Shown here: piece by piece, positions 34,188 through 64,000 of the stretch
Layout: every line of letters starts with the position of its first letter
Position numbering within the stretch: position 1 is the stretch's first letter
Source of the DNA: a virus
IMG/VR virus record: IMGVR_UViG_3300022868_000014
Span: 32,453-96,452 of that record
Direction: 5' to 3' (one strand)
Length of the DNA: 64,000 nucleotides
Notes under the pieces: model-generated
The model's database searches: none
Seen by the model: only the letters and a program-made list of their open reading frames with translations
Told to the model about the DNA's origin: nothing
Program-made: the position numbers and the translations under genes

Positions 34188-35690
34188 ATGACACAGGGAA
34201 TTATATATCTGAATCAGGGCGAGAAGTGCATGATCCGAATACTAGTGTCTGTGTTTTCATTACGCAAGCACTATGACGGACCTGTCTCTGTAATAGCTGT
34301 TGACGAGCAGAAACAATGGTTCGTTGATATCCTTAAGGACATGAACGTTGATATAGTGCCAGTCAAGAATATCCCGAAGATCCGGCCCCTAGTACGTAAA
34401 GCACGTTTACAGGAGAACAGTCCTTATGATGTTACCATGTTTATTGATGCTGACACCCTTATACTCCAGCCTATCGATGAGTACTTTGAGAAGATCAAAG
34501 AGTACAAGTTTTGTACAGGCGAGTTTGCAGGTTGGAAGACCAGCGGTGGTACTATGTCAAAGCGCATTAGGGGTTTTGGTAAAGTAGTACCTGACTATGT
34601 GAAGGGTGCCCTTTCCTACGGTAAAGCTACTAACACAGGTATCTTCGGCTTCACTAAAGATGCTGAGATACTTGATGAATGGAAATGGATTGCAGAAGAA
34701 GGTTGTAAGCAGAACTGCTCCCGCATACCTGATGAGGTAGGGTGCCAAATGCTCTTACATAAATATAGACACTGGCTTGCTCCTGTAGAGTGGGGTACAA
34801 GTGTTAAGTATGGTGCGCTTGGTGATAAGATTAAGATTGTTCATTACCATGGACGCAAACACGTAGCCCCTTTCCCTTTATGCAATCTATGGATACAGCA
34901 TTACTGGGAATTAAGATACAAGCTTAAAGGGAAACTACAGGAAGAGTTTAGTAAACCATGGCATGACCGGAGACTTAAGAGATATCTTGGTACGATCGGA
35001 TCTAATGTAACAGTGGTTACTGCTGTGAACGAGAAGTACCTTAATAGACTCGAGGCTAACCTCCCTCTATGGTTAAAGACTCAGGGTATCTATGAACACC
35101 CCATGGTCATATACGTAAACGGGATAGACATCGCGGATCCGAAATTGGACTTCGCGCGCAACCGGGCGACCCTCATCCCTTGGGACTTCCCTCAGGCAGC
35201 TAATACACGTGAGCTTATGCTTACAGCATTCGTATTAGGTACAGCCAAGGATATTAAGACCAAGTGGTGGTTGAAAGTCGATTGTGACACAACACCCAAA
35301 GAATCAGGTTATAAAGATTTCCAGTACACACTAGATATGCCTGATGAAGCCTGGGATAGGTCTATCTTCGGGAATAAGTGCGGTTATACTAAGAGCAAAC
35401 AATGCTATAACGAAAAACACTTTCTCAATACCTTGGATGAATGGTGGGAGGAGAAGACAGGCGAACCGCCTATGTTCCCACTTAATATTCCTTGGAGAGA
35501 AAAACATGGTCATTCAAGGCTTGCATCATTCATATGCCTACATAAAACGGTATTTGTGCAGAAGTATGCAGCTATGTGTGACGGTCGTTTACCTATCCCA
35601 AGTCACGACACGTTTTTATTTTACTGTGCGGAGCGTGGTAAGAGGGATAAGTGGGGTAGCACAAATTTTAAAAAGAGGTTTCAACCATGA
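34188..35690 (+). CDS. two-domain GT-A fold glycosyltransferase
   Basis: N-domain GIIY...SLRKH...FIDAD...NTGIFGF...IVHYHG (GT8-like); second domain VVTAV...KVDCD. Confidence 0.75.
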   Translation: MTQGIIYLNQGEKCMIRILVSVFSLRKHYDGPVSVIAVDEQKQWFVDILKDMNVDIVPVKNIPKIRPLVRKARLQENSPYDVTMFIDADTLILQPIDEYFEKIKEYKFCTGEFAGWKTSGGTMSKRIRGFGKVVPDYVKGALSYGKATNTGIFGFTKDAEILDEWKWIAEEGCKQNCSRIPDEVGCQMLLHKYRHWLAPVEWGTSVKYGALGDKIKIVHYHGRKHVAPFPLCNLWIQHYWELRYKLKGKLQEEFSKPWHDRRLKRYLGTIGSNVTVVTAVNEKYLNRLEANLPLWLKTQGIYEHPMVIYVNGIDIADPKLDFARNRATLIPWDFPQAANTRELMLTAFVLGTAKDIKTKWWLKVDCDTTPKESGYKDFQYTLDMPDEAWDRSIFGNKCGYTKSKQCYNEKHFLNTLDEWWEEKTGEPPMFPLNIPWREKHGHSRLASFICLHKTVFVQKYAAMCDGRLPIPSHDTFLFYCAERGKRDKWGSTNFKKRFQP

Positions 35691-35782
35691 AGTTATGCAG
35701 AATAGAGAGTTGTGCAGGTTCTTTTTATGCAAAAGATTTATGTAAGAAGCATTATACTAGATTACTCACAAGAGGCCTATAG
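35687..35782 (+). CDS. 31-aa C-x4-C...C-x2-H zinc-finger microprotein
   Basis: MKLCRIESCAGSFYAKDLCKKHYTRLLTRGL; ATGA overlap upstream; stop abuts the next ATG. Confidence 0.55.
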   Translation: MKLCRIESCAGSFYAKDLCKKHYTRLLTRGL

Positions 35783-36385
35783 ATGCGTTATAACAAACAT
35801 TTCCACCAAAAGCGAGTCGGACATCCACGTTACCCTATTATGGCTGACGCGGTGCTTAAAAGCTATGCAACGGCGTTTCCTGATTTAATACTACCGGACA
35901 AGGTAGCGGATGTAGGCTGTTCAGTAGGTGCACACCTTAAAGCTATTAAAGATCTTGGCTTTGATTGTGAGACCCTGGGAATAGATTACAGCGTCAATAT
36001 AGATGACGTACTAGAAGAGGTTGATGTTTATTATAACTTAGATCTTACAAAGGCTATTAAGCATTCGGCATATGGTCATAGTGACATAGTAATATGCCAG
36101 GAAGTAGCAGAACATATTGAAGCAGAGCATACAGGTAAAGTATTGGATTTTATAACATCACTTGCCTTTGCTGCAGAAAGTCTGCTGGTATTCGGGGCTG
36201 CCCACCCAGGACAACCAGGTCGCCATCATGTAAATTGTCGAACAAAGGAGTTTTGGGCTAAGTGCTTAAAGAAACGAGGATGGGAATTAGATGAGGCAGC
36301 TACGGCAGTCTATTTGGAAGTATTAGCTAAAGGTGGAATTATAAAAGGATGTTACGTGGATAACACACAATGTTTCACAAGGTAG
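35783..36385 (+). CDS. class I SAM-dependent methyltransferase
   Basis: VADVGCSVG motif I, GIDY, ICQEVAEHI, PGQPGRHHVNC. Confidence 0.85.
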   Translation: MRYNKHFHQKRVGHPRYPIMADAVLKSYATAFPDLILPDKVADVGCSVGAHLKAIKDLGFDCETLGIDYSVNIDDVLEEVDVYYNLDLTKAIKHSAYGHSDIVICQEVAEHIEAEHTGKVLDFITSLAFAAESLLVFGAAHPGQPGRHHVNCRTKEFWAKCLKKRGWELDEAATAVYLEVLAKGGIIKGCYVDNTQCFTR

Positions 36386-36394
36386 GAGGATACC

Positions 36395-36742
36395 ATGATA
36401 AAGTCCGGAAAGTTCTGGGGCGAGACTAGCCCTATATTTAATAAGAACAATGTAGAGATACACCGCCTAACAGGTAAGCAGGGAGGATACTCTTCTGTGC
36501 ATAAGCATCATGCTAAGTACAATATGTTCCTTGTTGAAGAAGGGGAGATAAAGATTACAACATGGAAGGACGACTCAGGTAAACCAGATGAGACTATTCT
36601 CAACACAGGTGATACCTGCATAGTGCCTCCGGGATTGTTCCATAAGTTTGATGTAATGCATCACTGTGTAGTTTATGAGATCTATTGGGTAGAACTAGCG
36701 GTGGATGATATTGAACGTAAGGACCATGGAGGCGTAAAATGA
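36395..36742 (+). CDS. cupin-domain protein (sugar isomerase-like)
   Basis: SSVHKHHAKYNMFLVEEG...GDTCIVPPGLFHKF cupin motifs. Confidence 0.8.
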   Translation: MIKSGKFWGETSPIFNKNNVEIHRLTGKQGGYSSVHKHHAKYNMFLVEEGEIKITTWKDDSGKPDETILNTGDTCIVPPGLFHKFDVMHHCVVYEIYWVELAVDDIERKDHGGVK

Positions 36743-37473
36743 AGATTGAAATCGCAGTACAGACACATTTCTTCCAGCAGAGACTATGCTGGATGCTTTC
36801 ATCTATAAGGCAGCAGATCCTACCTGACGATTTGGAGCTGAGTGTATCTGTTGCATACATCCCAGGGCTTGGTACCCCGACAACAGAAGCTGTTACAGGC
36901 TTGTTTAAAGCTTTAGGTATGAAAATTAATGACTGCACCTATCCAGACCAATCTGAATTCCAATATAGAGGTTGGACACGCAATAGGCAGTTAGATGAGT
37001 GCGAAGCAGACTGGATCGTATACGCAGACACTGATATGGTGTACCCTCCTAGCTTCTTCGCCAAGACGGCCGAGAAGCTTAAGAACGAGTACAAGGATAA
37101 CCCCCACTGCCTATACAGCAGAAGGTTCTCTACAACATTACCGGAGACTAAGGAGCTTATGGGTAAATATAGTTATCCCTGTATAGTCCGTCAGGCGCAC
37201 GCGTATGCAACAAGACTTCCCGGTAAACTCAAGGGTAATGTAGGGGCAGGCTACTTCCAGATGGCTAATGTTAAACTATTAAAAGAAAACCATGGCTACT
37301 ACCAGATCCCCGGTAAGAAATTAGACCGCAGCTGGGATAGGGGTCAAAAAGCAAAGAGTGATATGCACTTCCGTAAAATGCTCGGTAGGGAGGCAATAGA
37401 TCTCCCCCTACAAATACATCTTCAACATGAAAGGGACTCCGACTTCGGAGAACATGTGGAGATACAAAGGTGA
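36739..37473 (+). CDS. GT2-like glycosyltransferase
   Basis: LSSIRQQ, RGWTRN, WIVYADTD (DxD), GYFQM, HLQH. Confidence 0.75.
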   Translation: MKIEIAVQTHFFQQRLCWMLSSIRQQILPDDLELSVSVAYIPGLGTPTTEAVTGLFKALGMKINDCTYPDQSEFQYRGWTRNRQLDECEADWIVYADTDMVYPPSFFAKTAEKLKNEYKDNPHCLYSRRFSTTLPETKELMGKYSYPCIVRQAHAYATRLPGKLKGNVGAGYFQMANVKLLKENHGYYQIPGKKLDRSWDRGQKAKSDMHFRKMLGREAIDLPLQIHLQHERDSDFGEHVEIQR

Positions 37474-37477
37474 CCAT

Positions 37478-37693
37478 ATGAACTGTCCGGACTGTAAAGA
37501 CAGATGTAAATGTATTGACTCCCGTGACGCCTTGACCTATGGTCTGGGTGACGAGGATCTCCTTGATGATTCCCCTGTTAAGGAGAGGAAGTACGTTTGT
37601 AAGAATTGTGAACGTGTGTATATTACACAAGAATACATAGCGACTTCCTATAAAGGAAAGTCGAAAGATAAGAGACTTCAACCATCAAGGTGA
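37478..37693 (+). CDS. NrdR-like N-terminal zinc-ribbon protein
   Basis: MNCPDC...IDSR...RKYVCKNC...TQE. Confidence 0.6.
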   Translation: MNCPDCKDRCKCIDSRDALTYGLGDEDLLDDSPVKERKYVCKNCERVYITQEYIATSYKGKSKDKRLQPSR

Positions 37694-37744
37694 TGGCGGT
37701 GCACTTGTTATGCATCGAGAAACAATAACAAACAGGAGATTATT

Positions 37745-38704
37745 ATGCCTAGAATGACCCCTATGGGTAACGACAAGAACGACGAGACCTTCCTAAGGAA
37801 CTCACCCCGCGAATTCGGCCATGCAAACTTTGGATCAACTGTTCCGATGTTCTTCACGCGCTATGGTGCGCCTGTTGATATGATAGGACAATACTATGGA
37901 GCAACCTGCTTCCTGGTATCTAATGGTCCAAGCCTACTTAAGCTAGACCTTGAAAAGCTTAAACAACCCGGAGTTATGCTTATGTCCCTTAATAATGGTG
38001 CATCAACACTATTACAGAATGGTATCATACCTGACTTCTGGACATGCGTCGATCAACCAAGTAGATTCGTTAAGCAGATCTGGCTTAACCCTGCGATAAA
38101 GAAGTTTATTCCTACAGCAACCTTTGAGAAGGAACTATGGGATAACGAGGAATGGAAAACACTAAAGGACAGTATTGGTATTAAGTTCCCTAAGGACTGC
38201 CCCAATGTCATAGGGATTAAACGTAACGAGAAGTTCGCAGCACATAGGTTCTTCACAGAAGCCAGCTTTAATTGGGGGTGCCATAAAAAGTGGGGTGGTT
38301 GCCGTACGGTATTACTACCAGCTATACGTTTACCATATGTACTTGGTTTCCGTAAACTATGCCTGCTTGGTGTGGACATGAGTATGAACGAGACTGATAA
38401 GTATCACTTCGATGAAGGGCGTACTAAATCAGCTATTAACAATAATAATAATACATATAAGCGTATTATTACTGAATATGGCCCAGGTATACAGAAAGCC
38501 GCAAAGGAACTAGACTACCGTATAGTAAACTGTAACCCTGATAGTGGCTTAGATTGCTTCGAGCAGCAGTCCTTTGATGATGCCCTCAAAGAAGCAGTAA
38601 TACCATCCAACCCTATCAGCACAGCTGGTATGTATGTTGAATGGACCAAAAAGGTAGGTATGACTAAGGACCAGGCCCTCAAATCAACAGGCCATAGCAG
38701 TTGA
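37745..38704 (+). CDS. Maf/DUF115-like (sialyltransferase-like) sugar transferase
   Basis: CFLVSNGPSL, SLNN, PDFWTCVD, LGFRKLCLLGVDM, YHF, IVNC motifs. Confidence 0.7.
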   Translation: MPRMTPMGNDKNDETFLRNSPREFGHANFGSTVPMFFTRYGAPVDMIGQYYGATCFLVSNGPSLLKLDLEKLKQPGVMLMSLNNGASTLLQNGIIPDFWTCVDQPSRFVKQIWLNPAIKKFIPTATFEKELWDNEEWKTLKDSIGIKFPKDCPNVIGIKRNEKFAAHRFFTEASFNWGCHKKWGGCRTVLLPAIRLPYVLGFRKLCLLGVDMSMNETDKYHFDEGRTKSAINNNNNTYKRIITEYGPGIQKAAKELDYRIVNCNPDSGLDCFEQQSFDDALKEAVIPSNPISTAGMYVEWTKKVGMTKDQALKSTGHSS

Positions 38705-38729
38705 AAAGTCCCCCTTCATACGATATAGT
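38701..38729 (+). promoter_or_regulatory. sigma70-like promoter
   Basis: TTGAAA-N17-TATAGT. Confidence 0.5.
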
Positions 38730-38784
38730 AGTGTAGATGATTATATGCATTTACAATTAATATTAGAATTAACAGGAGAAAAAT

Positions 38785-39102
38785 ATGGGTAACTCATTAA
38801 TATCCCACGGCGGTAACCCACCTGAGGGCTACGATGTAGCTACAACAGGTACAAGAGTCGCCACAAGACAGGTGCTCAGGAAATACTGGGCTGCTGTGAA
38901 CACATCAGATACAGCAATCTATTTAGCTTTATACCAGGTCGGTACAGGCGACACCAACACAGCTGTCGTAGGCAGTGGTATCTATCTTGCACCCAATGGC
39001 GGATCCTTTGAACTGAACAATGTCAATATGTACTATGACGAAATATGGGCAATCCATGATGGAACAGGTACAAAGAGACTCAGTGTACAACAGGGCCGGT
39101 AA
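38785..39102 (+). CDS. small beta-rich hypothetical protein (possibly virion)
   Basis: ACAGGAG RBS; 105 aa. Confidence 0.65.
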   Translation: MGNSLISHGGNPPEGYDVATTGTRVATRQVLRKYWAAVNTSDTAIYLALYQVGTGDTNTAVVGSGIYLAPNGGSFELNNVNMYYDEIWAIHDGTGTKRLSVQQGR

Positions 39103-39254
39103 TTAAAATCCAATAACGGAGCCTATTGTGCTTAAAAGTGAAGATAAAGACGAGCTCAGCTTTACAGTGAGTGATGATTTATCAGGACTTTTACACCTAA
39201 GGATCAGCGCAGGCAGTAAGATAGAAGAACGAGAACTATAGTAGACACCTTTAT

Positions 39255-39283
39255 TTGAACTACGCGCCTACAACGTGTATTAT
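39255..39283 (+). promoter_or_regulatory. sigma70-like promoter
   Basis: TTGAAC-N17-TATTAT upstream of decoration copy B. Confidence 0.45.
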
Positions 39284-39337
39284 ATAGATATGACGAAATA
39301 AACTTTAATATCCAGTAATTTAACAGGAGAAATAATA

Positions 39338-40123
39338 ATGGGTACACTAACACCAGCTCAAATGTTTGATCATACTTTGAACGTCATAAAAGGACCTTCA
39401 CTTATGCACAGACTAGACTTTAGAGCAGCACCGGCCGCTAGCGAAGCAATCGCTGCCGGATCTGTTTGTTCGATCAACGCCGCAGGGCAACTAATTGCTG
39501 GTTGTACCGTCGGAGCCGCAATGAATAGGCCTATGCCTATGTTCTCAATTCAGAACGTCGATGACTTTGATGCCAACTCGGACGTAGGCAATATAAGTGG
39601 TGGTGTTATGAGTGCGATCGTAGCAACAGGTGGATTTGAAATTGAAACTACAGAATATGATACAGCAGGTACATATAACCCCAATGACTTTCTAACAGCA
39701 GACGGAGTCAATACTGGCGACGTTAAACGCATGGTCGAGGCACCTTATGGAGGCCAAGTAGGCGTTGGTGTTGTAAGTGAAGGTACTAGTACCAATGCAG
39801 ACGGCAAATCAGTAATTCGCTTCTGGACAGTTTATCTACCAGGCGGAGCCGGTGGCTATGATAACAGCAGCTCAAGTAGCTCAGACATTCTGAATTACAG
39901 CTCAAGCAGCAGCAGCTCAAGTAGCACACTAGCTAAGAGTACAAGTAGCTTAAGCAGCTCAAGCAGCTCAAGCAGCTCAAGCAGTAGCACAGATGTTCTA
40001 GACTACAGCACAAGCAGTGTTAACAGCTCAAGCAGTACTTCAGAGGTCTTAGACTACAGTACAAGCAGTGATAACAGTGCAAGTACAGTAGGCAAGAGTA
40101 CAAGCAGTACTAGCGTACCATAA
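39338..40123 (+). CDS. putative capsid decoration protein, copy B (long Ser-rich tail)
   Basis: First ~170 aa nearly identical to ORF 25679; ~83-aa Ser/Thr tail. Confidence 0.7.
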   Translation: MGTLTPAQMFDHTLNVIKGPSLMHRLDFRAAPAASEAIAAGSVCSINAAGQLIAGCTVGAAMNRPMPMFSIQNVDDFDANSDVGNISGGVMSAIVATGGFEIETTEYDTAGTYNPNDFLTADGVNTGDVKRMVEAPYGGQVGVGVVSEGTSTNADGKSVIRFWTVYLPGGAGGYDNSSSSSSDILNYSSSSSSSSSTLAKSTSSLSSSSSSSSSSSSTDVLDYSTSSVNSSSSTSEVLDYSTSSDNSASTVGKSTSSTSVP

Positions 40124-40195
40124 GCCAACAGATTAACAGTTAATGCCCGGGTAAAACCGGGCAACTAGCTTAAAGTGTTTAAGAGGGATATTGAG

Positions 40196-40648
40196 ATGGC
40201 ACCAAAAAAGCAACAAATAGTAACCACTGAAACCCAACTATTTGCTATAATGACCAAATTAGCGGACGCCCGAACTGACGCAGACGAGTCAGCCCATGAA
40301 GATATTAAGGATGCCCTTGCTAAACTTGATGAGAAGGTTGTTACATTAGATAAGTCTATAAGAGGCAATGGCGCCCCAGGAATTAAACAGGAACTGGTCT
40401 TATTACGTAAAGACGTAGATACCCACCTAGACGACTGTAAACAAAACGCAATGTCTACTAGATGGAAGGTCGGAATAATACTGGCCTCTATACTGGCCTC
40501 CATACCCGCTGTAGCTGCTTTCCGCCAATTACTCAGTATGGGTGATGCGGATGAAAAGATACACACAAAGGCGCTAGTACTGGAGATTATAAGAGATGTT
40601 ACTCGTTTACCTGTAGAGCTTGACCCTCCGAACCCCGACACACCATGA
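40196..40648 (+). CDS. coiled-coil protein with a transmembrane helix (holin-like?)
   Basis: Coiled coil followed by VGIILASILASIPAVAAF. Confidence 0.5.
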   Translation: MAPKKQQIVTTETQLFAIMTKLADARTDADESAHEDIKDALAKLDEKVVTLDKSIRGNGAPGIKQELVLLRKDVDTHLDDCKQNAMSTRWKVGIILASILASIPAVAAFRQLLSMGDADEKIHTKALVLEIIRDVTRLPVELDPPNPDTP

Positions 40649-40878
40649 AGAAACTTTATTTAGGTATATTAGTACTCATACCCTTCTTACTGGTAGGGTG
40701 TATGGCTAATCCCCTTTATAAACCTTCCCTAAGACTAAACAAGCATGTATTACCTGAATATTATAAATATGTCCAAGATGATCCGAAACTAACCCAAGAA
40801 CAGAAAACGCGTAGACACAACGCATGTGATGATTATGGCAGATTACTCAAAGATTACGGAGAGACTGAAGGAGATTGA
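40645..40878 (+). CDS. small lipoprotein (spanin-like?)
   Basis: MKK, hydrophobic core, LLVG-C lipobox. Confidence 0.65.
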   Translation: MKKLYLGILVLIPFLLVGCMANPLYKPSLRLNKHVLPEYYKYVQDDPKLTQEQKTRRHNACDDYGRLLKDYGETEGD

Positions 40879-41185
40879 TTGGAAGCCTATAGCTGACAAA
40901 GCCCTGGATGTTCTTAAAGACACAAGCTCTGATGAGCTGACTGAGCTCTCCCCTGAAGATAGAACCCGCTATGAAGCGGCCGTAATGGATGTTGCACGCC
41001 TTACTATCCTACACATGACAGCTAACCAAGAAGAACGTGAACTCATAGAGAATGAAATGGGATTCGTTAAGATATCCATGGAGAGCATGGAAGCACGTAA
41101 TAATCTCTTTTCTTATCGTAAAACTGTAGAGATTATAGGTGCAATACTGGCCGCTACCATCGCTGTAGCACTTGCAGTAGCCTAA
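40835..41185 (+). CDS. helical protein with C-terminal hydrophobic anchor
   Basis: Overlaps the 3' end of the lipoprotein gene; IIGAILAATIAVALAVA. Confidence 0.55.
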   Translation: MADYSKITERLKEIDWKPIADKALDVLKDTSSDELTELSPEDRTRYEAAVMDVARLTILHMTANQEERELIENEMGFVKISMESMEARNNLFSYRKTVEIIGAILAATIAVALAVA

Positions 41186-53814: not shown

Positions 53815-56236
53815 ATTCTTTAATCCTAGTTGGAAGTCTAATGACTTAGATCGGGATATGGAAAATAATTTCACCCCGGGTGCCTTGCCTATGGCAGGTG
53901 CTGGGGCTAATAATGCCGTATCTACTCTAATGAGTCAGTTGAGCCCTTTACTAGGGTCCTTAGCCAACCTTGCAGGTATTGATCAAAAGATTGTAGAAGG
54001 TATAACCCGCTCAGTAGGCGGAGTGCTATCCACACGAGGATCCTTCACAGGTGGTTCAAACCTTGCTCACCAGCTTTATAATAGTGAACAGGCTAGTACC
54101 AATGCCAAGTTACTTAAAGGGTTTGACACAGCTTCAACAGATGGGCATACTCGTTTAACCCAGCAGATATATGAAAAGATGGGCCATGACCCTGCTACAG
54201 CCGCTATTAAGGCCAAAGCAGCTATGGATAACCCATTAAAGCCTATGGGCTTAGCCTCTGGGCAGGCCTTTGATTCATATGGTATGGACCAGATGCGGAG
54301 AAGCATGACAGCCAGTAGTCTTATTGGTGGTGTACATGTAAATAACAAAGCTACTCAAGATAGATTTGCTAAATACTCATCAGACCTTGCATCCAATTAC
54401 ATGGAGAATAAGTTTGCGTTTGGAGGGTTAAGCGGTGGTGATGTGGGACAACTACAGACTGCTATGACTCAGAGAGGTCAACTAGACTTTAAGACTGGTG
54501 GTAAAGGTAACAAATCCAGTGATATGGTTAATAAGGTTAAGGACATGGCTAAGGCCATCTCCCCTCTTAAGCAACTCTTTAATGAGAGTATACCCCAATT
54601 AATGGAGAGATTGGATGAGGCTTTCGGGGTAAGCACAGCCACCTTCAGTCCAGATCAAATCTCCAGTAAAATTGCTAGAATGAAGTACACAGCATCTCAG
54701 ACAGGTGTATCTGTGGGTCAGATTATGGGTATGGCAGGTAGTGCACGTCAAATGCTTGGTAGTATGGGCATGTCCGGTATGGGTGCTGACACAGCAGCTG
54801 TACAGGCAGCAGGTATGATGGGATCAGGTGTTAACCTGGCTCGCTTAGATCCCCAGAAGTTCCGCCAACAGGTATTAAGGGATGCTGTAGGGCAACAAGG
54901 TAGCCAAGCAGCTAAAGAATTATCAGGGGCTGCTGCTATAATGATGAGATCGGGTAAACATAAAACACACCAGGCTGCTGTTGATGCTTTGATGGCTGGT
55001 TTAGGTGATGATTTTTCTGTGGGTAATATGGCAAAGGTAGCCGGTGCCTCAAGAGGACAGATAGTAGCAGCTGGTATGTCCGAGACAGCTGAGGATATAA
55101 GAACACAGACAGATGTTGCCACAAACCTCACAGAAAAAAGGTATGGAGACTTCCGAACAGTGATGGGACAGGGTCTTAGGTATAGAGCACGTAAAGCACG
55201 TGATCCTAAGGTTAAGAAAGCCTATGCGACACTCATAGCTGGTCTACGGTCGGGTGCGGTTGACAATGAAGAGAATGCAGCAAAGGCTCTAAGTGGTATG
55301 GGATTAAGTGCGGGCCAGATGGAGGCTGTACTTGGGACATACAAAGCAGAGGGTAACATAGCTGCTGGTTCTGTAGGATTTGAAGGGGGACAGCGCGGAG
55401 CAATAGCCCAATACAATGCGGAACAGAATCGTAAGCTTATCTCAGATAAAACAGAGGAATGGGTTAAAACAGAAAAATCCATCAAAGCAGCCGGGCTAGA
55501 TGAACCCGGTTATGGTCTTATAGGTATGATACAAAATAAAGACGGTAAAGGTACTAAAGTAAGTGATGCCTTCGTAAAAGCTTTTGGGCTGCCTAAACTT
55601 AATATGGATACAAGCACAATTGATGCCTTAAATAAAGAAACAGGTGGAGCATCTAGATTAACTGACTCTGTTAAGATTGCCTTTACTAATATGAATAAGA
55701 AGGGTGTAAGTGCAAAAGCACTTGCCCGTTATAAGGCTATGGGTAAGGCACTGTCCATGGATAAAGGCGCGGATAAGGTAGCAGCGTTGGCTAAAGCCAG
55801 GGATGATATCTTCCTCAATGACACAGATGAAGGTGAAGCAGTACGGAAAGTAGCAGGCTTCTCAGATAATAAGGCCTTTACTACAGATTATCTTAAAGCC
55901 ACAGCACCAGTAAGGGAGCGGATGCTTAAGAAGGCAGGTATAACAAAAGCCTTAGCAGGAATGAAGGGTGACGATGCGAATATTAAAGCATTAAAAGCCA
56001 AGATAGCCGCCGCTTCAGCAACAGATGATACTGTGAACGTTAGGGAGATGATAGCAAACAGTGGCTTAGAAGATTCACAGCAAAAAGCATTAAGCAGGGA
56101 TTACGAGAAGATAATGAAAGACGAAGCGGGAGTAGACGTCTCAGAGACAGCTCCGGACTTCCTTAAACGTATTCTGGCAGCATTGGAAAGTCTAGCTAAG
56201 GCTCCCATACTTGGCGGCAAAGCAGAAACAGATTAA
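53789..56236 (+). CDS. tape measure protein
   Basis: 815 aa, Ala/Gly/Met-rich and helical; follows the chaperone pair. Confidence 0.7.
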   Translation: MAEEEKKREFFNPSWKSNDLDRDMENNFTPGALPMAGAGANNAVSTLMSQLSPLLGSLANLAGIDQKIVEGITRSVGGVLSTRGSFTGGSNLAHQLYNSEQASTNAKLLKGFDTASTDGHTRLTQQIYEKMGHDPATAAIKAKAAMDNPLKPMGLASGQAFDSYGMDQMRRSMTASSLIGGVHVNNKATQDRFAKYSSDLASNYMENKFAFGGLSGGDVGQLQTAMTQRGQLDFKTGGKGNKSSDMVNKVKDMAKAISPLKQLFNESIPQLMERLDEAFGVSTATFSPDQISSKIARMKYTASQTGVSVGQIMGMAGSARQMLGSMGMSGMGADTAAVQAAGMMGSGVNLARLDPQKFRQQVLRDAVGQQGSQAAKELSGAAAIMMRSGKHKTHQAAVDALMAGLGDDFSVGNMAKVAGASRGQIVAAGMSETAEDIRTQTDVATNLTEKRYGDFRTVMGQGLRYRARKARDPKVKKAYATLIAGLRSGAVDNEENAAKALSGMGLSAGQMEAVLGTYKAEGNIAAGSVGFEGGQRGAIAQYNAEQNRKLISDKTEEWVKTEKSIKAAGLDEPGYGLIGMIQNKDGKGTKVSDAFVKAFGLPKLNMDTSTIDALNKETGGASRLTDSVKIAFTNMNKKGVSAKALARYKAMGKALSMDKGADKVAALAKARDDIFLNDTDEGEAVRKVAGFSDNKAFTTDYLKATAPVRERMLKKAGITKALAGMKGDDANIKALKAKIAAASATDDTVNVREMIANSGLEDSQQKALSRDYEKIMKDEAGVDVSETAPDFLKRILAALESLAKAPILGGKAETD

Positions 56237-56248
56237 TAAGGAATAATT

Positions 56249-56746
56249 ATGGCAGGAAACAATATTTTTTTAGGACCCAACAATAAGGCACAGAACGCTG
56301 TTGCTATTAAGGATCCGTTTCGGGGCAGTAACGTATGCGATATACAGGTCAACGGACGGTCTCTTAATAATAAATTATATCTACTAACCGTAGCAGGTAG
56401 TGGTGCGGTTAACCTTCAGATAGATGTTAACTTTAATAATGCACTTTTTGTTACAGTATTTGGTGATAAATTAACACCATTGACCTTTAAAGGTCTAGCA
56501 ATACCTACAGTTTGTGATGGCACAGATGATGGTAGTGCTATAATAACATTCTTTAATGATTACAAGGCTGGTGCTAAGAAGTCTGATATAGATGTTATTA
56601 CCATAGCATATAACAGAGGTGACTTTGTATTTAAAGGCATTCTAACACAGATGTCCCTTAACCCTTATTCACAAGCGGGTGCTGATGCCTTCACATTTGA
56701 TATGACCCTACAAGGAAGGGTAGTCTCCAAGAACACAGGTTCTTGA
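56249..56746 (+). CDS. putative tube-initiator/baseplate protein
   Basis: Tube-like size and beta pattern; follows the tape measure gene. Confidence 0.45.
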   Translation: MAGNNIFLGPNNKAQNAVAIKDPFRGSNVCDIQVNGRSLNNKLYLLTVAGSGAVNLQIDVNFNNALFVTVFGDKLTPLTFKGLAIPTVCDGTDDGSAIITFFNDYKAGAKKSDIDVITIAYNRGDFVFKGILTQMSLNPYSQAGADAFTFDMTLQGRVVSKNTGS

Positions 56747-56766
56747 TCTTAATAAAGGATTATAAA

Positions 56767-57438
56767 ATGAACAGAGTATATTCAATCTTAACTAAAGGGC
56801 AGAATAAAGATGCTCAAGGATACCAACGAAAGGTAGATACCACTGTAGGTTATAGCGGACTGGAAAGTGTTGCTGATATCCTGGTAACGGATAGTACTGA
56901 CAACTCCTACTACAACTACCAAGCAGATCAATTAGTCCAGGTATGCCGTAAATCGCTTTTAAAGGCCTCTCTCGCTGCAGTTGATCCTTTAAACACCTAC
57001 GAGTATACCTTCGGTGTTGTTGAGCCCTCCACGTTAATAGGAGCGCTCCCCGCTGGAGTGGCGTTGGATCTACTGGAACCGGACATGCGCCATACATGGA
57101 CATATCAGTCCTTGGTTATAGTGGTTAACCCCTCAGGGTTGGTTACTGTTAATGGTCTGCCACAGACCTTTACAGTGGCTGAGGGACTAACAACAGCTAT
57201 TATATTGGCCGATGGACTTTCCATGAAACTCAGAGGAACGCTTCCTGCTGCATCATTCAGCACCATTGTAACAGTGGTTAGACAACCGACAAGAGACCTT
57301 AAACCTGTTATAACTGCTTTAAAAGAATTCGACACTAAATGGCTACCAAAATACTCTGACTATAGACATAGTTATGATGTTAATGATTGGTTAGCCGCAT
57401 TCATTCTAAACTATTGCGAGACTGTAGATGGATCTTGA
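56767..57438 (+). CDS. putative baseplate protein
   Basis: AAGGA RBS before ATG 56767; gene order. Confidence 0.45.
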   Translation: MNRVYSILTKGQNKDAQGYQRKVDTTVGYSGLESVADILVTDSTDNSYYNYQADQLVQVCRKSLLKASLAAVDPLNTYEYTFGVVEPSTLIGALPAGVALDLLEPDMRHTWTYQSLVIVVNPSGLVTVNGLPQTFTVAEGLTTAIILADGLSMKLRGTLPAASFSTIVTVVRQPTRDLKPVITALKEFDTKWLPKYSDYRHSYDVNDWLAAFILNYCETVDGS

Positions 57439-59026
57439 TTCAGTAATTATTAATAGCTTAACTATGAGTGGTGCCGGTAAGACATACGACATTACCGACT
57501 TCTCAGCAAGCTGGGCAATTGACAGGGTACCACAGGCCAGATGCCGTGTGATCACAGGTCAAGGGGTCCTTGGCTCCACTAAGAACGTGGAGTGGGAAGA
57601 TCCCGATCCTGGTAAGCTGTGGACTATCAAGGTAAAGACAAGTGACGGCACAGAGACGCTCTTTAAAGGTTATATACTATCCGTAGCAGAGTCTGAAAGG
57701 TTATCACCAATGGGTAGTAAGGTCTCTTTATTGGTAACACTAGGAGCTGAGGCAGTTGTGCTATCCTCATTACAGTCAGCATCTTATTCCTACTGGGACC
57801 TGGAAGCCCTGGACACACAAGAGTCGAGTACACGTCAAAGACCCGTCATCAACTCGCGGTATCGCGCGCTGGCGATGAGTCTTGCTTCGATTATGGATGA
57901 ACCTGAGACTCGTAAAGATGTACAGGCGTTAACAGGGTATGGTGAGGTGAAATCCTATGATGCTCTTAATAAGTATATCATAAGCATGGCTGCTTATATG
58001 CATGACTGGGTAACTCTTGGTGAAGGCACATACAAAATATCGGATTTCTTCAAAGCTGATAGGGATATCGCATTCAAACCAGAGGACTCTGGTTTTTCCA
58101 AGACTGATAACTTCAACGCTCTTATTACCACATCCATGGGTTTAGCCTATCAAAAGATGTGGCAGTCTGGCAGTGTATGGTCTGCGGTTGTAGGGACAGC
58201 TCGTATGTTTTACTTATCAGTGATACCCCGTAAGAATAATACAGTAGAGATCGTACCTACCTTTGCATGGCTAAAGAAACCACACATAACTATCAGTAAT
58301 AGTCTTATATTAGGTGTCCAGGATACAACTAACAAAAGTAAACTCCTATACGCACCAGATCAGGTTAGGGTTGTGTCTCATCTACCAATGAACAGTAATG
58401 GTGCGAAAGCCAGTTCAGCCGGTATGTATGTGGGGTTATACCCAGAGGAACAGGGTGCAGATAAAGGTAAGACCGTATCTATGAGTATCCCTGATTGGTT
58501 GGCTGAGCATGTTAAATCTGAATTTGATGATGTACCTGCTGATAAGAAGACAAGGGTTAAAAGCGGAGAAAAGCCTGATGAGAAGAGGGACGAGCTCTCA
58601 ACTAACCAGCGTAACCTAGAGAGTACAGCCGACAGCTTAGCCAAAGTATTTTATGCCCAGAGAAAGAGTGCAGACCGTACAGTGTCCCTTAGGATACCAT
58701 GGAATAGATTCTCTATGATAAACTCTCTTGGTTATGTGGCTAAGATACCTAATCTATCCTTATACATTACCAGTGACAAACAAACACTATACGGAATGGT
58801 ACAATCAGTCGGCTTGACCATAAGCAGATCAGCAACAGGAGGTACAGCTTCTATGAATATTAATATATCTCACGTGCGTGATGAGGCTTCAAATACAAAA
58901 TTTGGGCTTGATGATAACCCTCTATACTCTTTTGACTTTGCATCAGGTGCATCAAAAATAAAGTCAGCAGTTGGACTTGGGGGCGGTAGTGGAGTAAGTT
59001 TAGGAGATAGACTTAAGCCCGGCTGA
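57428..59026 (+). CDS. putative baseplate hub protein
   Basis: 532 aa; hub-like N-terminus (ITDFSASW...LFKGYI); gene order. Confidence 0.5.
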   Translation: MDLDSVIINSLTMSGAGKTYDITDFSASWAIDRVPQARCRVITGQGVLGSTKNVEWEDPDPGKLWTIKVKTSDGTETLFKGYILSVAESERLSPMGSKVSLLVTLGAEAVVLSSLQSASYSYWDLEALDTQESSTRQRPVINSRYRALAMSLASIMDEPETRKDVQALTGYGEVKSYDALNKYIISMAAYMHDWVTLGEGTYKISDFFKADRDIAFKPEDSGFSKTDNFNALITTSMGLAYQKMWQSGSVWSAVVGTARMFYLSVIPRKNNTVEIVPTFAWLKKPHITISNSLILGVQDTTNKSKLLYAPDQVRVVSHLPMNSNGAKASSAGMYVGLYPEEQGADKGKTVSMSIPDWLAEHVKSEFDDVPADKKTRVKSGEKPDEKRDELSTNQRNLESTADSLAKVFYAQRKSADRTVSLRIPWNRFSMINSLGYVAKIPNLSLYITSDKQTLYGMVQSVGLTISRSATGGTASMNINISHVRDEASNTKFGLDDNPLYSFDFASGASKIKSAVGLGGGSGVSLGDRLKPG

Positions 59027-59143: not shown

Positions 59144-59905
59144 ATGGCCAAACTAAAAGCAAATGATATGTGGATGAAGGGCACTCCGAAGGAGCTTAAC
59201 AATGCTCAGCGTGATACACCCACTACCCATGCATATGATAACTGGAAGAAGGAGCCTAACCCATTAAATGTTAAGGCCGTGCTCACAGAGCTTAAACCTA
59301 CCATAGAATCTGCTCTAACATCTTATGCCCCAGAAGATAAGGATATTCTACGCACAAGAGCCAATATAATGGCAGTAAACGCCATCAATATGTATGATCC
59401 TACTCAACGTACTAAACTAAGCTCATATGTATTTAATCATCTGAAAGGACTGAACAGGGAGAAAGCCCGTCGTAAGAATGTTGTACATGTCCCTGAGAAC
59501 ATACTACTTGAGCGTAACAAAATACAAAAGGCTACCGATTCCTTCCAATCTGAGTACGGAAGGGAACCTACCTTGGACGAATTAGCCGACGACACAGGTC
59601 TCTCTATTAAACGTATTGAATATGCATCGAAGAAGAAAGCAGCACGTAGTGGTTCACAATTACTATCTGAGAAGGGTGATTCACTCTTTACTAAAGCAGA
59701 GGATCCTCAACGTGTATGGGCTGACTATGTCTACCATGACTTAGACGGGCCAGATAAGAAGATATTTGAATGGAGTACAGGCTACGGTGGCACAGATAAG
59801 ATTCAGAAAATGGACATAGCTAAGAGGCTCAACATCAGCCCGGCAGCTGTTAGTCGTCGTATTAACAAAATAGTCTATCTATTGGAGCAAGGATACAATG
59901 TCTGA
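59144..59905 (+). CDS. sigma70-family RNA polymerase sigma factor (group 3-like)
   Basis: Region 2 (AINMYDP..TKLSSYV), region 3 (VHVP...YGREPTLDELADDTG), region 4 HTH (DIAKRLNISPAAVSRR). Confidence 0.85.
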   Translation: MAKLKANDMWMKGTPKELNNAQRDTPTTHAYDNWKKEPNPLNVKAVLTELKPTIESALTSYAPEDKDILRTRANIMAVNAINMYDPTQRTKLSSYVFNHLKGLNREKARRKNVVHVPENILLERNKIQKATDSFQSEYGREPTLDELADDTGLSIKRIEYASKKKAARSGSQLLSEKGDSLFTKAEDPQRVWADYVYHDLDGPDKKIFEWSTGYGGTDKIQKMDIAKRLNISPAAVSRRINKIVYLLEQGYNV

Positions 59906-60266: not shown

Positions 60267-60267
60267 C

Positions 60268-60690
60268 ATGACAGTTGACTTATCATTCACAACCAATACG
60301 ACCGAGGTTATCGAGGTACCTTTTACAATAGACGGAAGTTGCACAGGGCGGCAAGTCCTTATGCAGAAGGTACTTATATTTATGTTGACCAGTACAGATG
60401 ACCTTCTTAGAGCAGAGGGTGGCAGGTTGTATGATAACCTCAGAAGTGCTAATGTAACTGAAGATAGTTTAGAAAGAATTGAAAATATTATTAATATCGC
60501 TATTACAGACACCGTGGGGTTCATAAAAGAAGTCCAGGACGAGTTACCTGATGTACCAGATAACGAGCGTCTTAGCAGTATAGCTTTGAAGGAACTTTCT
60601 GTGCCAGAAGCAGGATCCCTTAATGTTGTATTGAATGTTATATCTGTAAGCGGCGAAGAAGAACTTACTGCATTAAACTTGGAGGTTTAA
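60268..60690 (+). CDS. putative baseplate wedge/sheath initiator (gp25-like)
   Basis: LMQKVLIFMLT...GG.L...ERL pattern; precedes a baseplate J-like gene. Confidence 0.55.
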   Translation: MTVDLSFTTNTTEVIEVPFTIDGSCTGRQVLMQKVLIFMLTSTDDLLRAEGGRLYDNLRSANVTEDSLERIENIINIAITDTVGFIKEVQDELPDVPDNERLSSIALKELSVPEAGSLNVVLNVISVSGEEELTALNLEV

Positions 60691-60691
60691 T

Positions 60692-62284
60692 ATGGCTGTA
60701 ACATTTGATGATGTCAGCACAGACCTGCTTAAAGATTATGAAGAAATATTAAAGGCATATTACCTAGAATTAAATCCTACTGCGGATGTATCTAATGGTA
60801 GTGCTATTCATGAACTAGTGATCAGACCTGCTGCTGCTATTTACGCACGTAATGAGGTAGCATTAGAAGACCTAAGGACACAATATTCCCTTAACCTACT
60901 GAGCGCTACTGATGATCCTGACGAAACGCTGGCCACCAACCTGGCTGCTAACTTTAAAGTCGTACGGAAAGACGGAACTCCGGGTACAGGTACCCTAGCT
61001 GTCTATACTAACCAGACTAATGATATATACCTGAACTCAGGTACAACTGTGACTGCTGGTGCTGTAGAGCTTGAGCTGACTAAGACCTATGTAGGTGTTG
61101 CAGACGACTCAGATCGTACGGACACAGATACGGTTAAGTACAGACAGTTCGTAAAGACAGGCGACACCGAATATGCATTCCTAGTACCTGTTAATACTGT
61201 AGATAATACAGCAGCTGTCGTAGAGGAAGGCGCAACAGCCACACTTACTGGCCAGAACACACAGGTAACAAGATTAGAGGTAGCATCAGCTGTAAGCGGA
61301 GGCTCCGCTGAGGAGACTACAACTGAGCTGGTTGATCGCGTTATCAACGGTATAACAGCTAAAGTACCTTCAGGTAAAGCACATATCCAAGCCCTCTTTG
61401 AGGAACAGGATGAGATCAACGTAAGAGACCTTGCCATCTTCGGCATGGGTGATCCTGAGATGCTCAGGGATAAGAACAACGTCTTCCTAATAAGCACAGG
61501 CTCCAGAGTAGATATCTATTGTAAGACAGCACAGCTGCCTGCTACACTGGTAGTACAGAAGACAGCCACCTCAACTGATGGTATAAACTGGTCTATGTTC
61601 TTTGAACGTGACGAGGCCCCCGGTTGGTATTACATATCAAAGGTGTCTCACGTAGGCAACGCAAGAGTAATAACAGATTCAGCTGAGTTTGATATCACCT
61701 TCCTTTATCAGCAGGAAGATGATGGCCCTGAAGTATTCAGTGGACTCACAGCGCGTTACAGCCCCTATCAGACCGCAAAAGTAGATTTTAGCTACGTGGG
61801 CGCAGGATCGACCTCCGCCGTTTTCAATGTATCCCTGGTTTACATGCCCCAACTAGAAGGACTACAGGAGCTGATCAATGCGCCTAGTATCCGTAACAAG
61901 CAACAAGACAATCTGGTCAAGGGAGCTGTACCAGCATATGTTGGTATGGATCTAACCTTGAACTGCCTAAACGATTGCTCAGGTATTGACCTATCTGTCC
62001 TTAAAGATTTTATAGCAGCCTACATCAATGAGCTGCCTATGGGCCGTGGCTTCCTAAGCGTGTCCGATCTGGCTGTTGTTATCAACGCCAATTATTCTAA
62101 CCTAACTCTGAGCTTCCCCTCGAAGCTTAGTTTGACTAATTATATGCCCGACGGATCTGTTTACCAGGAAGAGACACAAGAAGGTGTTCTGAATATGCAT
62201 GAAGACCTCACTCAGAGCGTCTCTGCGGAGAATACATCCTTCTTCTGTAGGCCTGGAGATATTTACATAACCATTGAGGATTAG
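60692..62284 (+). CDS. baseplate J/gp6-like wedge protein
   Basis: GSAIHELVIRP, RKDG..GTG, SGGSAEETTTELVDR, GMGDPEMLRD, VDIY. Confidence 0.7.
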   Translation: MAVTFDDVSTDLLKDYEEILKAYYLELNPTADVSNGSAIHELVIRPAAAIYARNEVALEDLRTQYSLNLLSATDDPDETLATNLAANFKVVRKDGTPGTGTLAVYTNQTNDIYLNSGTTVTAGAVELELTKTYVGVADDSDRTDTDTVKYRQFVKTGDTEYAFLVPVNTVDNTAAVVEEGATATLTGQNTQVTRLEVASAVSGGSAEETTTELVDRVINGITAKVPSGKAHIQALFEEQDEINVRDLAIFGMGDPEMLRDKNNVFLISTGSRVDIYCKTAQLPATLVVQKTATSTDGINWSMFFERDEAPGWYYISKVSHVGNARVITDSAEFDITFLYQQEDDGPEVFSGLTARYSPYQTAKVDFSYVGAGSTSAVFNVSLVYMPQLEGLQELINAPSIRNKQQDNLVKGAVPAYVGMDLTLNCLNDCSGIDLSVLKDFIAAYINELPMGRGFLSVSDLAVVINANYSNLTLSFPSKLSLTNYMPDGSVYQEETQEGVLNMHEDLTQSVSAENTSFFCRPGDIYITIED

Positions 62285-62285
62285 T

Positions 62286-64000
62286 ATGGAAAAGACGGTT
62301 AATGGAATCAAACAAGTCCTGGGGGCTTTCTGGCTTACTATCTGGAAAGACCCTGATTTTATTGATGCCCTGACTAATGGTTATGCACAGGACGCTACAC
62401 AGCTTGAACTTGAAACTGATACCATGTCTGATGTCCTTAGTAGATATGATGTGCGATTGACTAAGGCGCGTAGATGGGACTTCTTCGAATTCAAAGAAAC
62501 AGACCTTAACTCTGAGCTGACCGCTGTTGGTGAGTTTGCAGTTGGTGATGGTTTCCGGGTAGGTGAAGACCAGACAGCTCCTAATCTATTCTACATAGAG
62601 ACGGACAAAGAGGATTGCATATTCATTACAGATAACCCCACTAATCCCACTATCATATGGAACAAGTGGCAGGACTTCTACTTTGATGATGGTAAGCTCT
62701 ACTTCTATGAGGATCCTTTTAATAAGGCCTTTAACTTCATTGCTAACGATAACGAGGGTGAGGTAGATCTAAAGGCCCAGCTCTGGTTAGTATACAGTGA
62801 AATAAGTACAACTGAATTAAAAGACTTCTTTACCGTTTATCTAAATCTTACGTTCCCCTCTGAGCCTCATTACAGGGACCTCTTCAATAGTATATGGGAT
62901 CTTTTAGTAGAGGGCGGCACAGTACAGAATATGAATGCCTTCCTTGCACGTATGGCCGATGCGGACGTCGCGCTGGCAGATGAAGATGTCCTTGATATGT
63001 GGTCTGAAAATGATCGTTGGTACATTAAAACAGCAACTAATTTATATAGCTGTGCCCAACCTGGTGTACCTATTGTACAAGTAGGCGCTACCTTGATAAA
63101 AGGGCAGATGCTCTTTGACTCTGTCGAGCTAGTTATATTGGACGAGAACACAGCAGCCACAGAGGTACCCGCGCTACATCTTGGTGCAGGCTACCTTAAT
63201 CCTAAATATGAAGGTGGGCTACTCTTCGAGAACACAGATCATGACGTACCTTTGAATTATGTACAGATAGATGGTACAGCCATACAGTATGACCCAGCAG
63301 GTAATCCTGTACTCCCTGCATCTGCTTGTGAGGGCACCACCTATGATGAGAATCTACATGACAATAGAATCGTACGTATGCCTGACATTCCTTTAGGAGG
63401 GCACGCAAATACAGTTGCCACCTACTTTGAAGACATCAGTACAAAGGCCTGGGAACTAGGCGTTGATGTATGGAACCTTATACCCACTAAAGCAAGCAAT
63501 ACGGTCAACCTAGGAGATAGTGAACTGTGGTATGAGCCCGGCTCTAGTTGGTTTATAGGGGCCCGTAATGATAGTATTAAATGGTACAAAACATCAGTTA
63601 GCAGTACCGACCCCATGCATCTATCTGGTGCAGCATGGACTACCCTTGTAGGGGGCTTACCTCCAGCACCTACTACAGCGTTTGATGGTATAGACGAGGT
63701 GGTGATAGTATCAGGTGCCGGTCGACCAGAAGCTAATGGTCTTTTCTATACTACCGGCTCTTATCAAGATGCTCCTATTTTTACTAAATGGCAAGAGAGC
63801 AGCAGTAGTTCTAGCAGTTCAAGCAGCTCAAGCAGCTCAAGCAGCTCAAGCAGTTCAAGCAGCTCTAGCAGCTCTAGCAGCTCAAGTTCTAGCAGCTCTA
63901 GCAGCTCAAGTTCTAGCAGCTCAAGTTCTAGCAGTTCTAGCAGCTCAAGTTCTAGCAGCTCTAGCAGTTTGGGCATAACAAGTTCAAGTAGCAGCTCTAG
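62286..64000 (+). CDS. baseplate wedge/tail protein with poly-Ser tract (3'-truncated by window edge)
   Basis: GAGG RBS; MEKTVNGIKQVLGAFW...; frame open to the window end, so it is missing from the ORF track. Confidence 0.7.
   Translation, partial: MEKTVNGIKQVLGAFWLTIWKDPDFIDALTNGYAQDATQLELETDTMSDVLSRYDVRLTKARRWDFFEFKETDLNSELTAVGEFAVGDGFRVGEDQTAPNLFYIETDKEDCIFITDNPTNPTIIWNKWQDFYFDDGKLYFYEDPFNKAFNFIANDNEGEVDLKAQLWLVYSEISTTELKDFFTVYLNLTFPSEPHYRDLFNSIWDLLVEGGTVQNMNAFLARMADADVALADEDVLDMWSENDRWYIKTATNLYSCAQPGVPIVQVGATLIKGQMLFDSVELVILDENTAATEVPALHLGAGYLNPKYEGGLLFENTDHDVPLNYVQIDGTAIQYDPAGNPVLPASACEGTTYDENLHDNRIVRMPDIPLGGHANTVATYFEDISTKAWELGVDVWNLIPTKASNTVNLGDSELWYEPGSSWFIGARNDSIKWYKTSVSSTDPMHLSGAAWTTLVGGLPPAPTTAFDGIDEVVIVSGAGRPEANGLFYTTGSYQDAPIFTKWQESSSSSSSSSSSSSSSSSSSSSSSSSSSSSSSSSSSSSSSSSSSSSSSSSSSSSSSSSLGITSSSSSS
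63798..63968 (+). repeat. 57 consecutive Ser codons
   Basis: AGC/AGT/TCA/TCT codons in 9-15-nt recurring units, in the frame of ORF 62286. Confidence 0.9.

Follow-up and report, generated by a model that had tools for sequence, protein, structure and literature searches.

The IMG/VR virus record IMGVR_UViG_3300022868_000014 of an uncultured, large tailed phage (96,452 bp, about 52% of a genome according to CheckV; G000 in the following) carries a cassette of five enzyme genes, which encode a two-domain glycosyltransferase of 500 residues (GT500), a methyltransferase, a cupin, a GT2-like glycosyltransferase and a Maf-like transferase, together with genes for four particle proteins that contain serine tracts. 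We propose that the enzymes of the cassette O-glycosylate these tracts, a reading that we consider reasonably probable, and that the particle is probably sugar-coated. The system is known here from genes alone, from which we infer the attachment of sugar. The window analysed is the last 64 kb of the record (64,000 nucleotides, positions 32,453 to 96,452). The plus strand carries all large genes of the window, and coordinates below are window positions on this strand unless another record or strand is named. An earlier sequence-only reading of the window had proposed that poly-serine acts as a portable acceptor tag by which head, sheath and baseplate are coated with a methylated glycan, and overall this interpretation is borne out in part. 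Statistics and synteny both support a link between cassette and tracts. The substrates are most likely the disordered tracts on outward-facing proteins, namely two cement paralogues, the tail sheath (in an outer-domain loop) and a protein of the distal tail.

Serine tracts on particle proteins

Serine-rich tracts had been reported by the sequence-only reading in two decoration proteins, the tail sheath and the last open reading frame (ORF), and all four were found at the positions it gave. The tail of decoration protein A (amino acids 176-198, nucleotides 26204-26272) is a modest tract with 12 serines in 23 residues. The tail of decoration protein B (amino acids 174-261, nucleotides 39857-40120) has 47 serines in 88 residues, and the insert in the sheath (amino acids 267-329, nucleotides 47831-48019) has 37 in 63. 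The last ORF contains exactly 57 consecutive serines (63798-63968), which are followed by LGITSSSSSS up to the contig end. The restriction of tracts to these proteins was also confirmed: among the 102 plus-strand ORFs of at least 100 residues in the 96-kb contig only these four carry a tract, and 0 tracts arose in the 200 residue shuffles that served as the null. Only two further ORFs scored as tracts, and both are minus-strand frames opposite real genes.

The serine codons of the tracts are AGC (45%), AGT (28%), TCA (14%) and TCT (11%), and stop codons are present in the other reading frames. The mixture of AGY and TCN codons, together with these stops, indicates that serine is conserved and not a trinucleotide. 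AGY codons make up 73% of the serine codons in the tracts and 35% of those elsewhere. The tracts contain tandem repeats with periods of 9, 15 and 24 nt, and their length differs between homologues. The proteins that carry them are unrelated, and depending on the protein a tract forms a C-terminal tail, a loop insert or a linker between domains.

Short motifs punctuate the tracts. LGIT, EGIT, TEVLTT, xLDYS and GKSTSS are common to G000 and to the related complete genome G002, despite a sheath identity of 43%. The motifs xLDYS and GKSTSS punctuate the tail of decoration protein B, and both are also present in the tails of both decoration paralogues of G002. LGIT (63969-63980), EGIT, TEVLTT and ERIT recur in non-homologous proteins, including those encoded at 8299-17360 and 55250-57892 of G002. 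These motifs might serve in recognition, or they might be left over from an exchange of modules. That the tag is portable, as had been proposed, agrees with the absence of tracts from the same sites in otherwise conserved homologues: of the 59 sheath homologues on the tree, 22 carry a tract at this site; they fall into three separate clades, and parsimony counts five state changes. Serine-positive sheath sites recur across independent assemblies, including the ENA/Logan homologues P0006-P0016. As judged from sequence, the shared motifs and varied positions fit a movable module.

The gene of decoration paralogue A (25679-26275) immediately precedes that of the major capsid protein (26290-27249, phrog_2522), and the gene of paralogue B (39338-40123, 261 residues) lies just downstream of the cassette, after a small conserved ORF (38785-39102). 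The two proteins share 87% identity over 175 residues. Their nearest ESM Atlas clusters carry the families Phage_cement and XM1_gp53_minor_capsid, which we take as a lead only, and by sequence the paralogues look like cement proteins. Homologues without the tail are found in the relatives G001 (171 residues) and G003 (178 residues).

The protein of 935 residues encoded at 47033-49840 is a genuine contractile tail sheath by fold, in agreement with the sequence-only reading, and its tract is predicted to be a disordered internal insert between beta-rich insertion domains. The top Foldseek matches of its AlphaFold2 model are all sheaths (diffocin, phage 812, AFP, PVC and pyocin, with a probability of 1.00). 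The predicted local distance difference test score (pLDDT) of the model is 85.5; residues 269-329 score below 50 and form the only long internal low-confidence stretch, which lies between well-folded beta domains. A profile of the sheath sequence gave no match among PDB sequences. The extra insertion domains of sheaths face outward, and by analogy the insertion domains and the serine loop of this sheath would be exposed in the same way.

The last ORF (62274-63998) belongs to the distal tail module and is conserved behind the same neighbour of 530 residues. No family or match was found for it in Pfam, PHROGs, GenBank phages or the ESM Atlas, and its designation as a baseplate protein is a guess from gene order. 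Homologues are present in 8/8 relatives compared; they have 342-522 residues, and none contains a tract. Because the contig ends inside the poly-serine repeat, the ORF is truncated and has no stop codon. Most likely, assembly failed at the repeat and broke the contig there. The protein-search matches included a contig of 100,433 bp with an identical sheath, which might complete this ORF.

The sole tRNA-Ser in the island of 12 tRNA genes (ARAGORN; 32388-32477) has the anticodon GCU, which corresponds to AGC and AGT, and it is a possible translation helper for the tracts. As a general accessory of the tracts it was rejected: neither G002 nor G003 has a tRNA-Ser, and the link is therefore weak. 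The island (28156-32819) lies behind the capsid gene.

Co-occurrence of cassette and tracts

The nearest cultured phages are very distant. The record has no DNA match among GenBank phages, and the sheath matches Salmonella phage Arash and three Vibrio phages in its C-terminal part only (about 27% identity). For the lineage of G000 we collected 38 sheath homologues and took nine related virus records whole. The trio of GT500, GT2-like and Maf-like genes was searched for on the whole records by local blastp and hidden Markov models (HMMs).

G000 has the trio, with tracts in decoration proteins A and B, the sheath and the last ORF. Two further records have it, and identities across the three range from 40 to 59%. 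The first of them, G002, is a 100% complete genome of 185 kb with terminal repeats. Its trio is 59, 55 and 43% identical to that of G000, and it encodes seven tract proteins: both decoration paralogues, the sheath, a protein of 240 residues and three giants of 880-1877 residues, in which serine tracts join lectin-like (Laminin_G/ConA-like) and beta-propeller domains. The second, G003 (79% complete), encodes three large tract proteins. Trio and tracts are both lacking in G001 (30% complete), and G004, G006 and G007 (51-93% complete) have no trio and no real tracts. G005 and G008, both 100% complete, have tracts and no trio; G005 encodes a cytidine monophosphate (CMP)-sugar synthetase and a distant Maf-like gene, and in G008 a pair of GT2 genes lies some 6 kb away from its serine-tract ORF.

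Among the records taken whole, G001 is the closest tract-free relative. Besides the short decoration protein described above, it has a bare sheath and a last-ORF homologue of 461 residues. In G000, the cassette is flanked by two conserved ORFs without a family, p252 (252 residues, 33425-34183) and p105 (105 residues, 38785-39102). In G001 and G002 the homologues of these two ORFs stand side by side, and the insertion point of the cassette is thereby marked. In G001 no cassette was found between the adjacent homologues or upstream of the sheath gene. The cassette changes its state twice on the sheath tree.

The association extends beyond the lineage. A search for GT500 homologues gave 53 IMG/VR loci and 64 loci on contigs of genomes or metagenome-assembled genomes (MAGs), with flanks of up to 10 kb, and these were dereplicated at 80% identity. 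The strong MAG matches belong mostly to Verrucomicrobiota and Planctomycetota. A locus was counted as tract-bearing when an ORF of at least 150 residues with at least 25 tract residues lay within 10 kb. Such a large serine-tract ORF, often with hundreds of tract residues, was found near 26 of the 48 cassette clusters and near none of the 67 control loci, which have only a distant GT-A match (Fisher p = 6e-13, without correction for kinship or host range). Over the same distance, a Maf-like gene accompanies GT500 in 39/48 cassette clusters; among the controls the count is 0/67. We also took whole five of the records that had been negative within the flanks: three have large serine-tract ORFs 11-75 kb from the cassette, and the other two, G012 (27% complete) and G015, have none. 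Most metagenome loci around serine-positive sheaths reach less than 5.5 kb upstream and are too short to show a cassette. Co-occurrence across related phages had been suggested as a check by the sequence-only reading, and cassette and tracts are indeed correlated, both in the lineage (G000, G002 and G003) and elsewhere.

Enzymes of the cassette

GT500 (34188-35690) consists of two tandem GT-A domains; AlphaFold2 modelled them as two Rossmann-like domains with a mean pLDDT of 95.7. The N-terminal domain (residues 1-255) has the GT8 fold, with the motifs D87-x-D89, N149/G151 and H219-x-H221-G222, and the closest structures with a GT-A fold are those of GT8. Among 14 homologues, the extended motifs D87-A-D89, N149-T-G151 and H219-Y-H221-G222-x-K224 do not vary, and across 52 they hardly do. 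They include the DxD metal/nucleotide motif and the C-terminal H-x-x-G-x-K motif that are typical of GT8 enzymes. The C-terminal domain (residues ~272-500) contains K363-x-D365-x-D367, of which D365-x-D367 is invariant in the 14 homologues, and both GT-A domains have acidic motifs. When residues 1-255 were compared with known structures (VIA-align), matches were obtained with LgtC (Z 20.3, root mean square deviation (rmsd) 3.1, 234 residues aligned), glycogenin (Z 19.4, 20% identity) and GlyE (Z 19.0, 214 residues aligned), and also with the Skp1 galactosyltransferase and the catalytic domain of UGGT. The top Foldseek matches of GT500 were LARGE1, K4CP, PmHS2, GlyE and glycogenin, with LARGE1, K4CP and PmHS2 closest over the whole chain. 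Several of these structural relatives, namely GlyE, glycogenin, the Skp1 galactosyltransferase, UGGT and LARGE1, act on protein-bound glycans, which by analogy suggests a similar target for GT500. No Pfam match was found for GT500, and its fused relative P0082 scored 22.8 bits against the PF01501 threshold of 24.3 bits. Lacking a PF01501 match above threshold, GT500 is GT8-like by fold and not a curated member of the family. A library of protein-cluster representatives contains 890 relatives of GT500; no homologue was found in 50,697 GenBank phage records.

The second gene (35783-36385) encodes a small class-I S-adenosylmethionine (SAM)-dependent methyltransferase, which matched Methyltransf_23 below threshold (E 1.4e-5, 25.3 bits, with the cut-off at 27). 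It is followed by a Cupin_2 protein (36395-36742; PF07883, 31.6 bits against 27.2), which is weakly WbuC-like (TIGR04366 cupin_WbuC, E 1.4e-5, below the cut-off) and recurs in the cassette loci L121, L123, L131, L134, L138 and L140. In two unrelated cassette loci, L134 (15074-16039) and L140 (14595-15524), methyltransferase and cupin form a single ORF, suggesting that the two act together. The GT2-like (GT-A) glycosyltransferase (36739-37473) is also below threshold (PF00535, E 3e-4, 21.2 against 23.3 bits), and its G002 orthologue (55% identity) passes the cut-off. It has a weak PDB match to a PglI-type glucosyltransferase, and its gene neighbours those of the Maf-like protein and GT500 in many loci.

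The Maf/DUF115-like (MptE-like) transferase (37745-38704, 319 residues) matches PF01973 over residues 47-216 (E 7e-12, 45.9 bits against 34.6). This is its only Pfam match; the protein contains little beyond the DUF115 domain and does not have the multi-domain architecture of Maf. Some of its relatives in other loci are longer (618 residues in L174 and 947 in L184). The protein belongs to PHROG 4603, annotated as 'alpha-2,3-sialyltransferase', and matches Maf 5MU5 and PseD weakly. A profile match to the CMP-Neu5Ac sialyltransferase 9c08 (E 0.037) and a sialyltransferase-like G-x-D-F strand motif were also found. Thus, of the five enzymes named in the sequence-only reading, the GT-A pair (by structure), the MptE-like transferase and the Cupin_2 protein stood, whereas the GT2-like enzyme and the methyltransferase were below threshold here.

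None of the five enzymes, GT500 included, has a transmembrane segment. Their genes lie between the head and tail genes and are co-directional with both; they occupy the same strand, with gaps of -4 to 271 nt and AGGAG sites, and from this arrangement it is plausible that the cassette is an operon. GT500 relatives are fused to Methyltransf_24 or FkbM methyltransferases, and MptE-like, methyltransferase and GT8-like parts also occur in one chain. These fusions, the fusion of methyltransferase and cupin and the frequent proximity of Maf-like genes to GT500 tie the cassette enzymes together functionally. The G002 cassette contains further genes (19749-20963 and 24416-25684; in L079, 2749-3963 and 7416-8684), which encode a kinase-like and methyltransferase fusion, a clear GT2, a deoxynucleoside monophosphate (dNMP) kinase and a B12-binding radical-SAM enzyme. 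The kinase-methyltransferase layout presumably resembles that of chain-terminating enzymes of O-antigen synthesis. Among the ORFs searched at 32838-41185, no GT-B family from Pfam, NCBIfam or PHROGs was found.

Proposed mechanism and relation to known systems

In the mechanism that we propose, glycosylation would begin in the cytoplasm with a single-domain enzyme that attaches one sugar to serine hydroxyls. Flagellin glycosylation points, by analogy, to the Maf-like enzyme as the favoured initiator; the sequence of events is our suggestion. GT500 would then extend the sugar, possibly into an alternating chain as made by LARGE1 or K4CP, and the methyltransferase and cupin would either modify this sugar or provide the chain with a cap. 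In this scheme the tracts would serve as movable acceptor stalks, and the outcome would be a glycan coat on the head, the sheath and the tail tip.

Known Maf proteins glycosylate serine and threonine residues of a surface filament protein before assembly. Their donors are CMP-activated nonulosonic or ulosonic acids, and as a rule a CMP-sugar synthetase is encoded in the vicinity. The phage protein resembles the Maf flagellin O-glycosyltransferases (PF01973; Magnetospirillum magneticum, PDB ID 5MU5) in its central DUF115 domain and in being cytoplasmic and soluble. However, it has 319 residues compared with about 650, without the flanking domains, and the phage has no flagellin; a CMP-sugar synthetase was not found in G000 or G002 by a search of low sensitivity. 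The serine-rich-repeat adhesin systems (GtfA/GtfB and GlyE of S. pneumoniae PsrP, PDB ID 5GVV) offer serine-rich disordered acceptors, cytoplasmic glycosylation and several GT-A extenders, and the phage tracts would play the same acceptor role. In contrast to these systems, the phage cassette shows no GT-B pair of the GtfA/GtfB type and no accessory Sec export, and its acceptors would be particle proteins; export is not relevant for a lytic particle. The phage repeat is also nearly pure serine with LGIT/TEVLTT punctuation, unlike the SAS[E/V]SAS[T/I]-type dipeptide.

LARGE1 builds a polymer on the O-linked glycan of a mucin-like protein region. Like GT500, LARGE1, K4CP (the E. coli K4 chondroitin polymerase), PmHS2 (the Pasteurella heparosan synthase) and WbbM combine two GT-A domains in tandem, and both domains contain a motif of the DxD type. 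However, GT500 is only 10-14% identical to them and its domain orientation differs (rmsd ~15 Å over both domains), and polymerisation by GT500 is at most predicted. The phage cassette is thus not a member of the Maf, serine-rich-repeat or LARGE1/K4CP systems; by analogy it would work like the first two, with LARGE1 and K4CP as models for extension. Polyserine linkers of carbohydrate-active enzymes from marine and soil bacteria likewise contain long serine runs joining folded domains, as in G002, but the phage tracts also occur as free C-terminal tails and a loop insert and co-occur with a transferase cassette. In cluster F1 mycobacteriophages (Che8 and Rita; Freeman et al. 2023, cited in PMC11256854 and PMC12582341), phage-encoded glycosyltransferases are reported to modify the phages' own capsid proteins and to form a glycan shield (summarised in PMC11256854). 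Those are siphophages of actinobacteria, differing in host and phage type from the phage studied here.

More tentatively, and with doubts that outweigh our confidence, we consider a modular and horizontally mobile 'glycocalyx kit' of uncultured large phages, in which any outward-facing protein of the particle could gain a serine stalk, and GT500 would polymerise on it a long, possibly methyl-capped, matriglycan-like heteroglycan. Such a mucin-like coat on head, sheath and fibres might shape adsorption, stability or the evasion of attack by host or environment. Our literature searches returned no description of poly-serine tracts paired with such a cassette in phages, and no account of protein glycosylation by a 'glycocalyx kit' of this type in viruses or bacteria.

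Alternative explanations

Several observations weigh against glycosylation of the tracts by the cassette. Within 10 kb, 22 of the 48 cassette loci have no tract, and G015 (IMGVR_UViG_3300037225_000932, 88% complete) is a real counter-example, with a cassette at 28120-31579 and no serine or serine/threonine tract on 173 kb. The control loci differ in host range, and a shared-host confound remains in the comparison. The lineage yields no more than two independent contrasts; both are concordant, and two are too few for significance. G003 carries the cassette, yet its sheath and decoration protein are bare; G005 and G008 have serine tracts without the trio, though other sugar genes are present there. 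In addition, no nucleotide-sugar synthesis genes were found in G000 or in the complete G002 by a profile search of low sensitivity, and the donors would therefore have to come from the host. The CMP-sugar synthetase family PF02348 was not found in G000, G002 or G003 and is present in G005, G012 and G014; a host could supply CMP-Kdo. The PF01973 profile search gave no match in G002, where blastp and our own HMM found the Maf-like gene with 43% identity. Because the profile search overlooked this gene, we treat the negative family searches (PF00303, PF12851 and the sugar-synthesis genes) as weak.

Some of these exceptions, including the cassette without tracts in G015 and the tracts without the trio in G005 and G008, would fit an explanation in which poly-serine forms unmodified flexible hydrophilic linkers or 'bristles' and the cassette acts on host envelope glycans or on other host or phage proteins. 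The giants of G002, whose tracts connect folded domains in the manner of classical polyserine linkers, would need no more than a plain linker role, a point that also counts against glycosylation. Generic GT2 genes are present in the tract-less G004, G006 and G007. However, this explanation leaves unexplained the difference between 26/48 and 0/67 loci and the joint gain or loss of cassette and tails between G000/G002 and G001. The C-terminal tails of the decoration proteins join nothing, and the enzymes have no membrane segments, unlike the usual phage enzymes that remodel host glycans. We therefore regard unmodified linkers as unlikely. Still less plausible is neutral repeat slippage or an assembly artefact without function, to which we give hardly any weight. 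The tandem repeats, the variation of tract length among homologues and the contig break inside one tract would all be expected from it; it does not account for serine being kept via two unrelated codon families with stops in the other frames, for tracts at one and the same position of the sheath in 22 homologues that were assembled independently, for LGIT, xLDYS and GKSTSS being shared with so distant a relative as G002, or for the confinement of tracts to particle proteins.

Hypermodification of phage DNA with sugars by the cassette, as in T4-like and other phages, with the serine tracts unrelated to it, had been named as the alternative in the sequence-only reading. Glycosylation of DNA bases is a known activity of GT-A and GT-B enzymes from phages (bioRxiv 10.1101/2023.12.21.572611; PMC13326640). 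In G002 the dNMP kinase gene lies between the GT2-like and Maf-like genes, with the B12-radical-SAM gene behind all of these, and these two additions could point to nucleic-acid chemistry, a further point against protein glycosylation. However, the DNA-sugar pathways described so far have as gene neighbours either a thymidylate-synthase-like hydroxymethylase or the combination of C5-methyltransferase and TET-type oxygenase (bioRxiv 10.1101/2023.12.21.572611), and no credible PF00303 or PF12851 match was found in G000, G003 or the complete G002, by a search that misses divergent genes and in which PF12851 matched no control genome either. The dNMP kinase gene of G000 is far from the cassette, and the cassette lies between head and tail genes and not among replication genes. 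Moreover, DNA modification does not predict an association with serine-tract proteins. This alternative is thus weakened, and we consider it improbable.

Other features of the window

An ORF of 873 residues in the head module (21469-24090) has intein-splicing, Hint and LAGLIDADG matches. Its homologue in G002 has only 484 residues, and the ORF therefore probably holds an intein with a homing endonuclease. An HNH endonuclease gene (27363-28127) lies directly behind the major capsid gene. The p252 ORF upstream of the cassette contains an Ala/Glu/Lys-rich tandem repeat (33979-34041). A sigma-70 region 3/4-like gene (59144-59905), 50% identical in G002, is located in the middle of the tail/baseplate module. 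A scan for promoters and terminators found sites no more numerous than in shuffled sequence.

Implications

To our knowledge, self-glycosylation of phage particles has so far been documented for a few mycobacteriophages only. If the serine tracts are glycosylated as we propose, a different and much more widespread set of enzymes would decorate movable serine stalks on the capsid, sheath and tail of large environmental phages. The system would then offer glyco-engineering new protein O-glycosyltransferases and a short acceptor tag that can be encoded genetically. Virion proteins of 'low complexity', a common class, would be accounted for as well, and models of the particle surface of uncultured phages would change with respect to adsorption, aggregation, binding to mucus and particles, and protease resistance.

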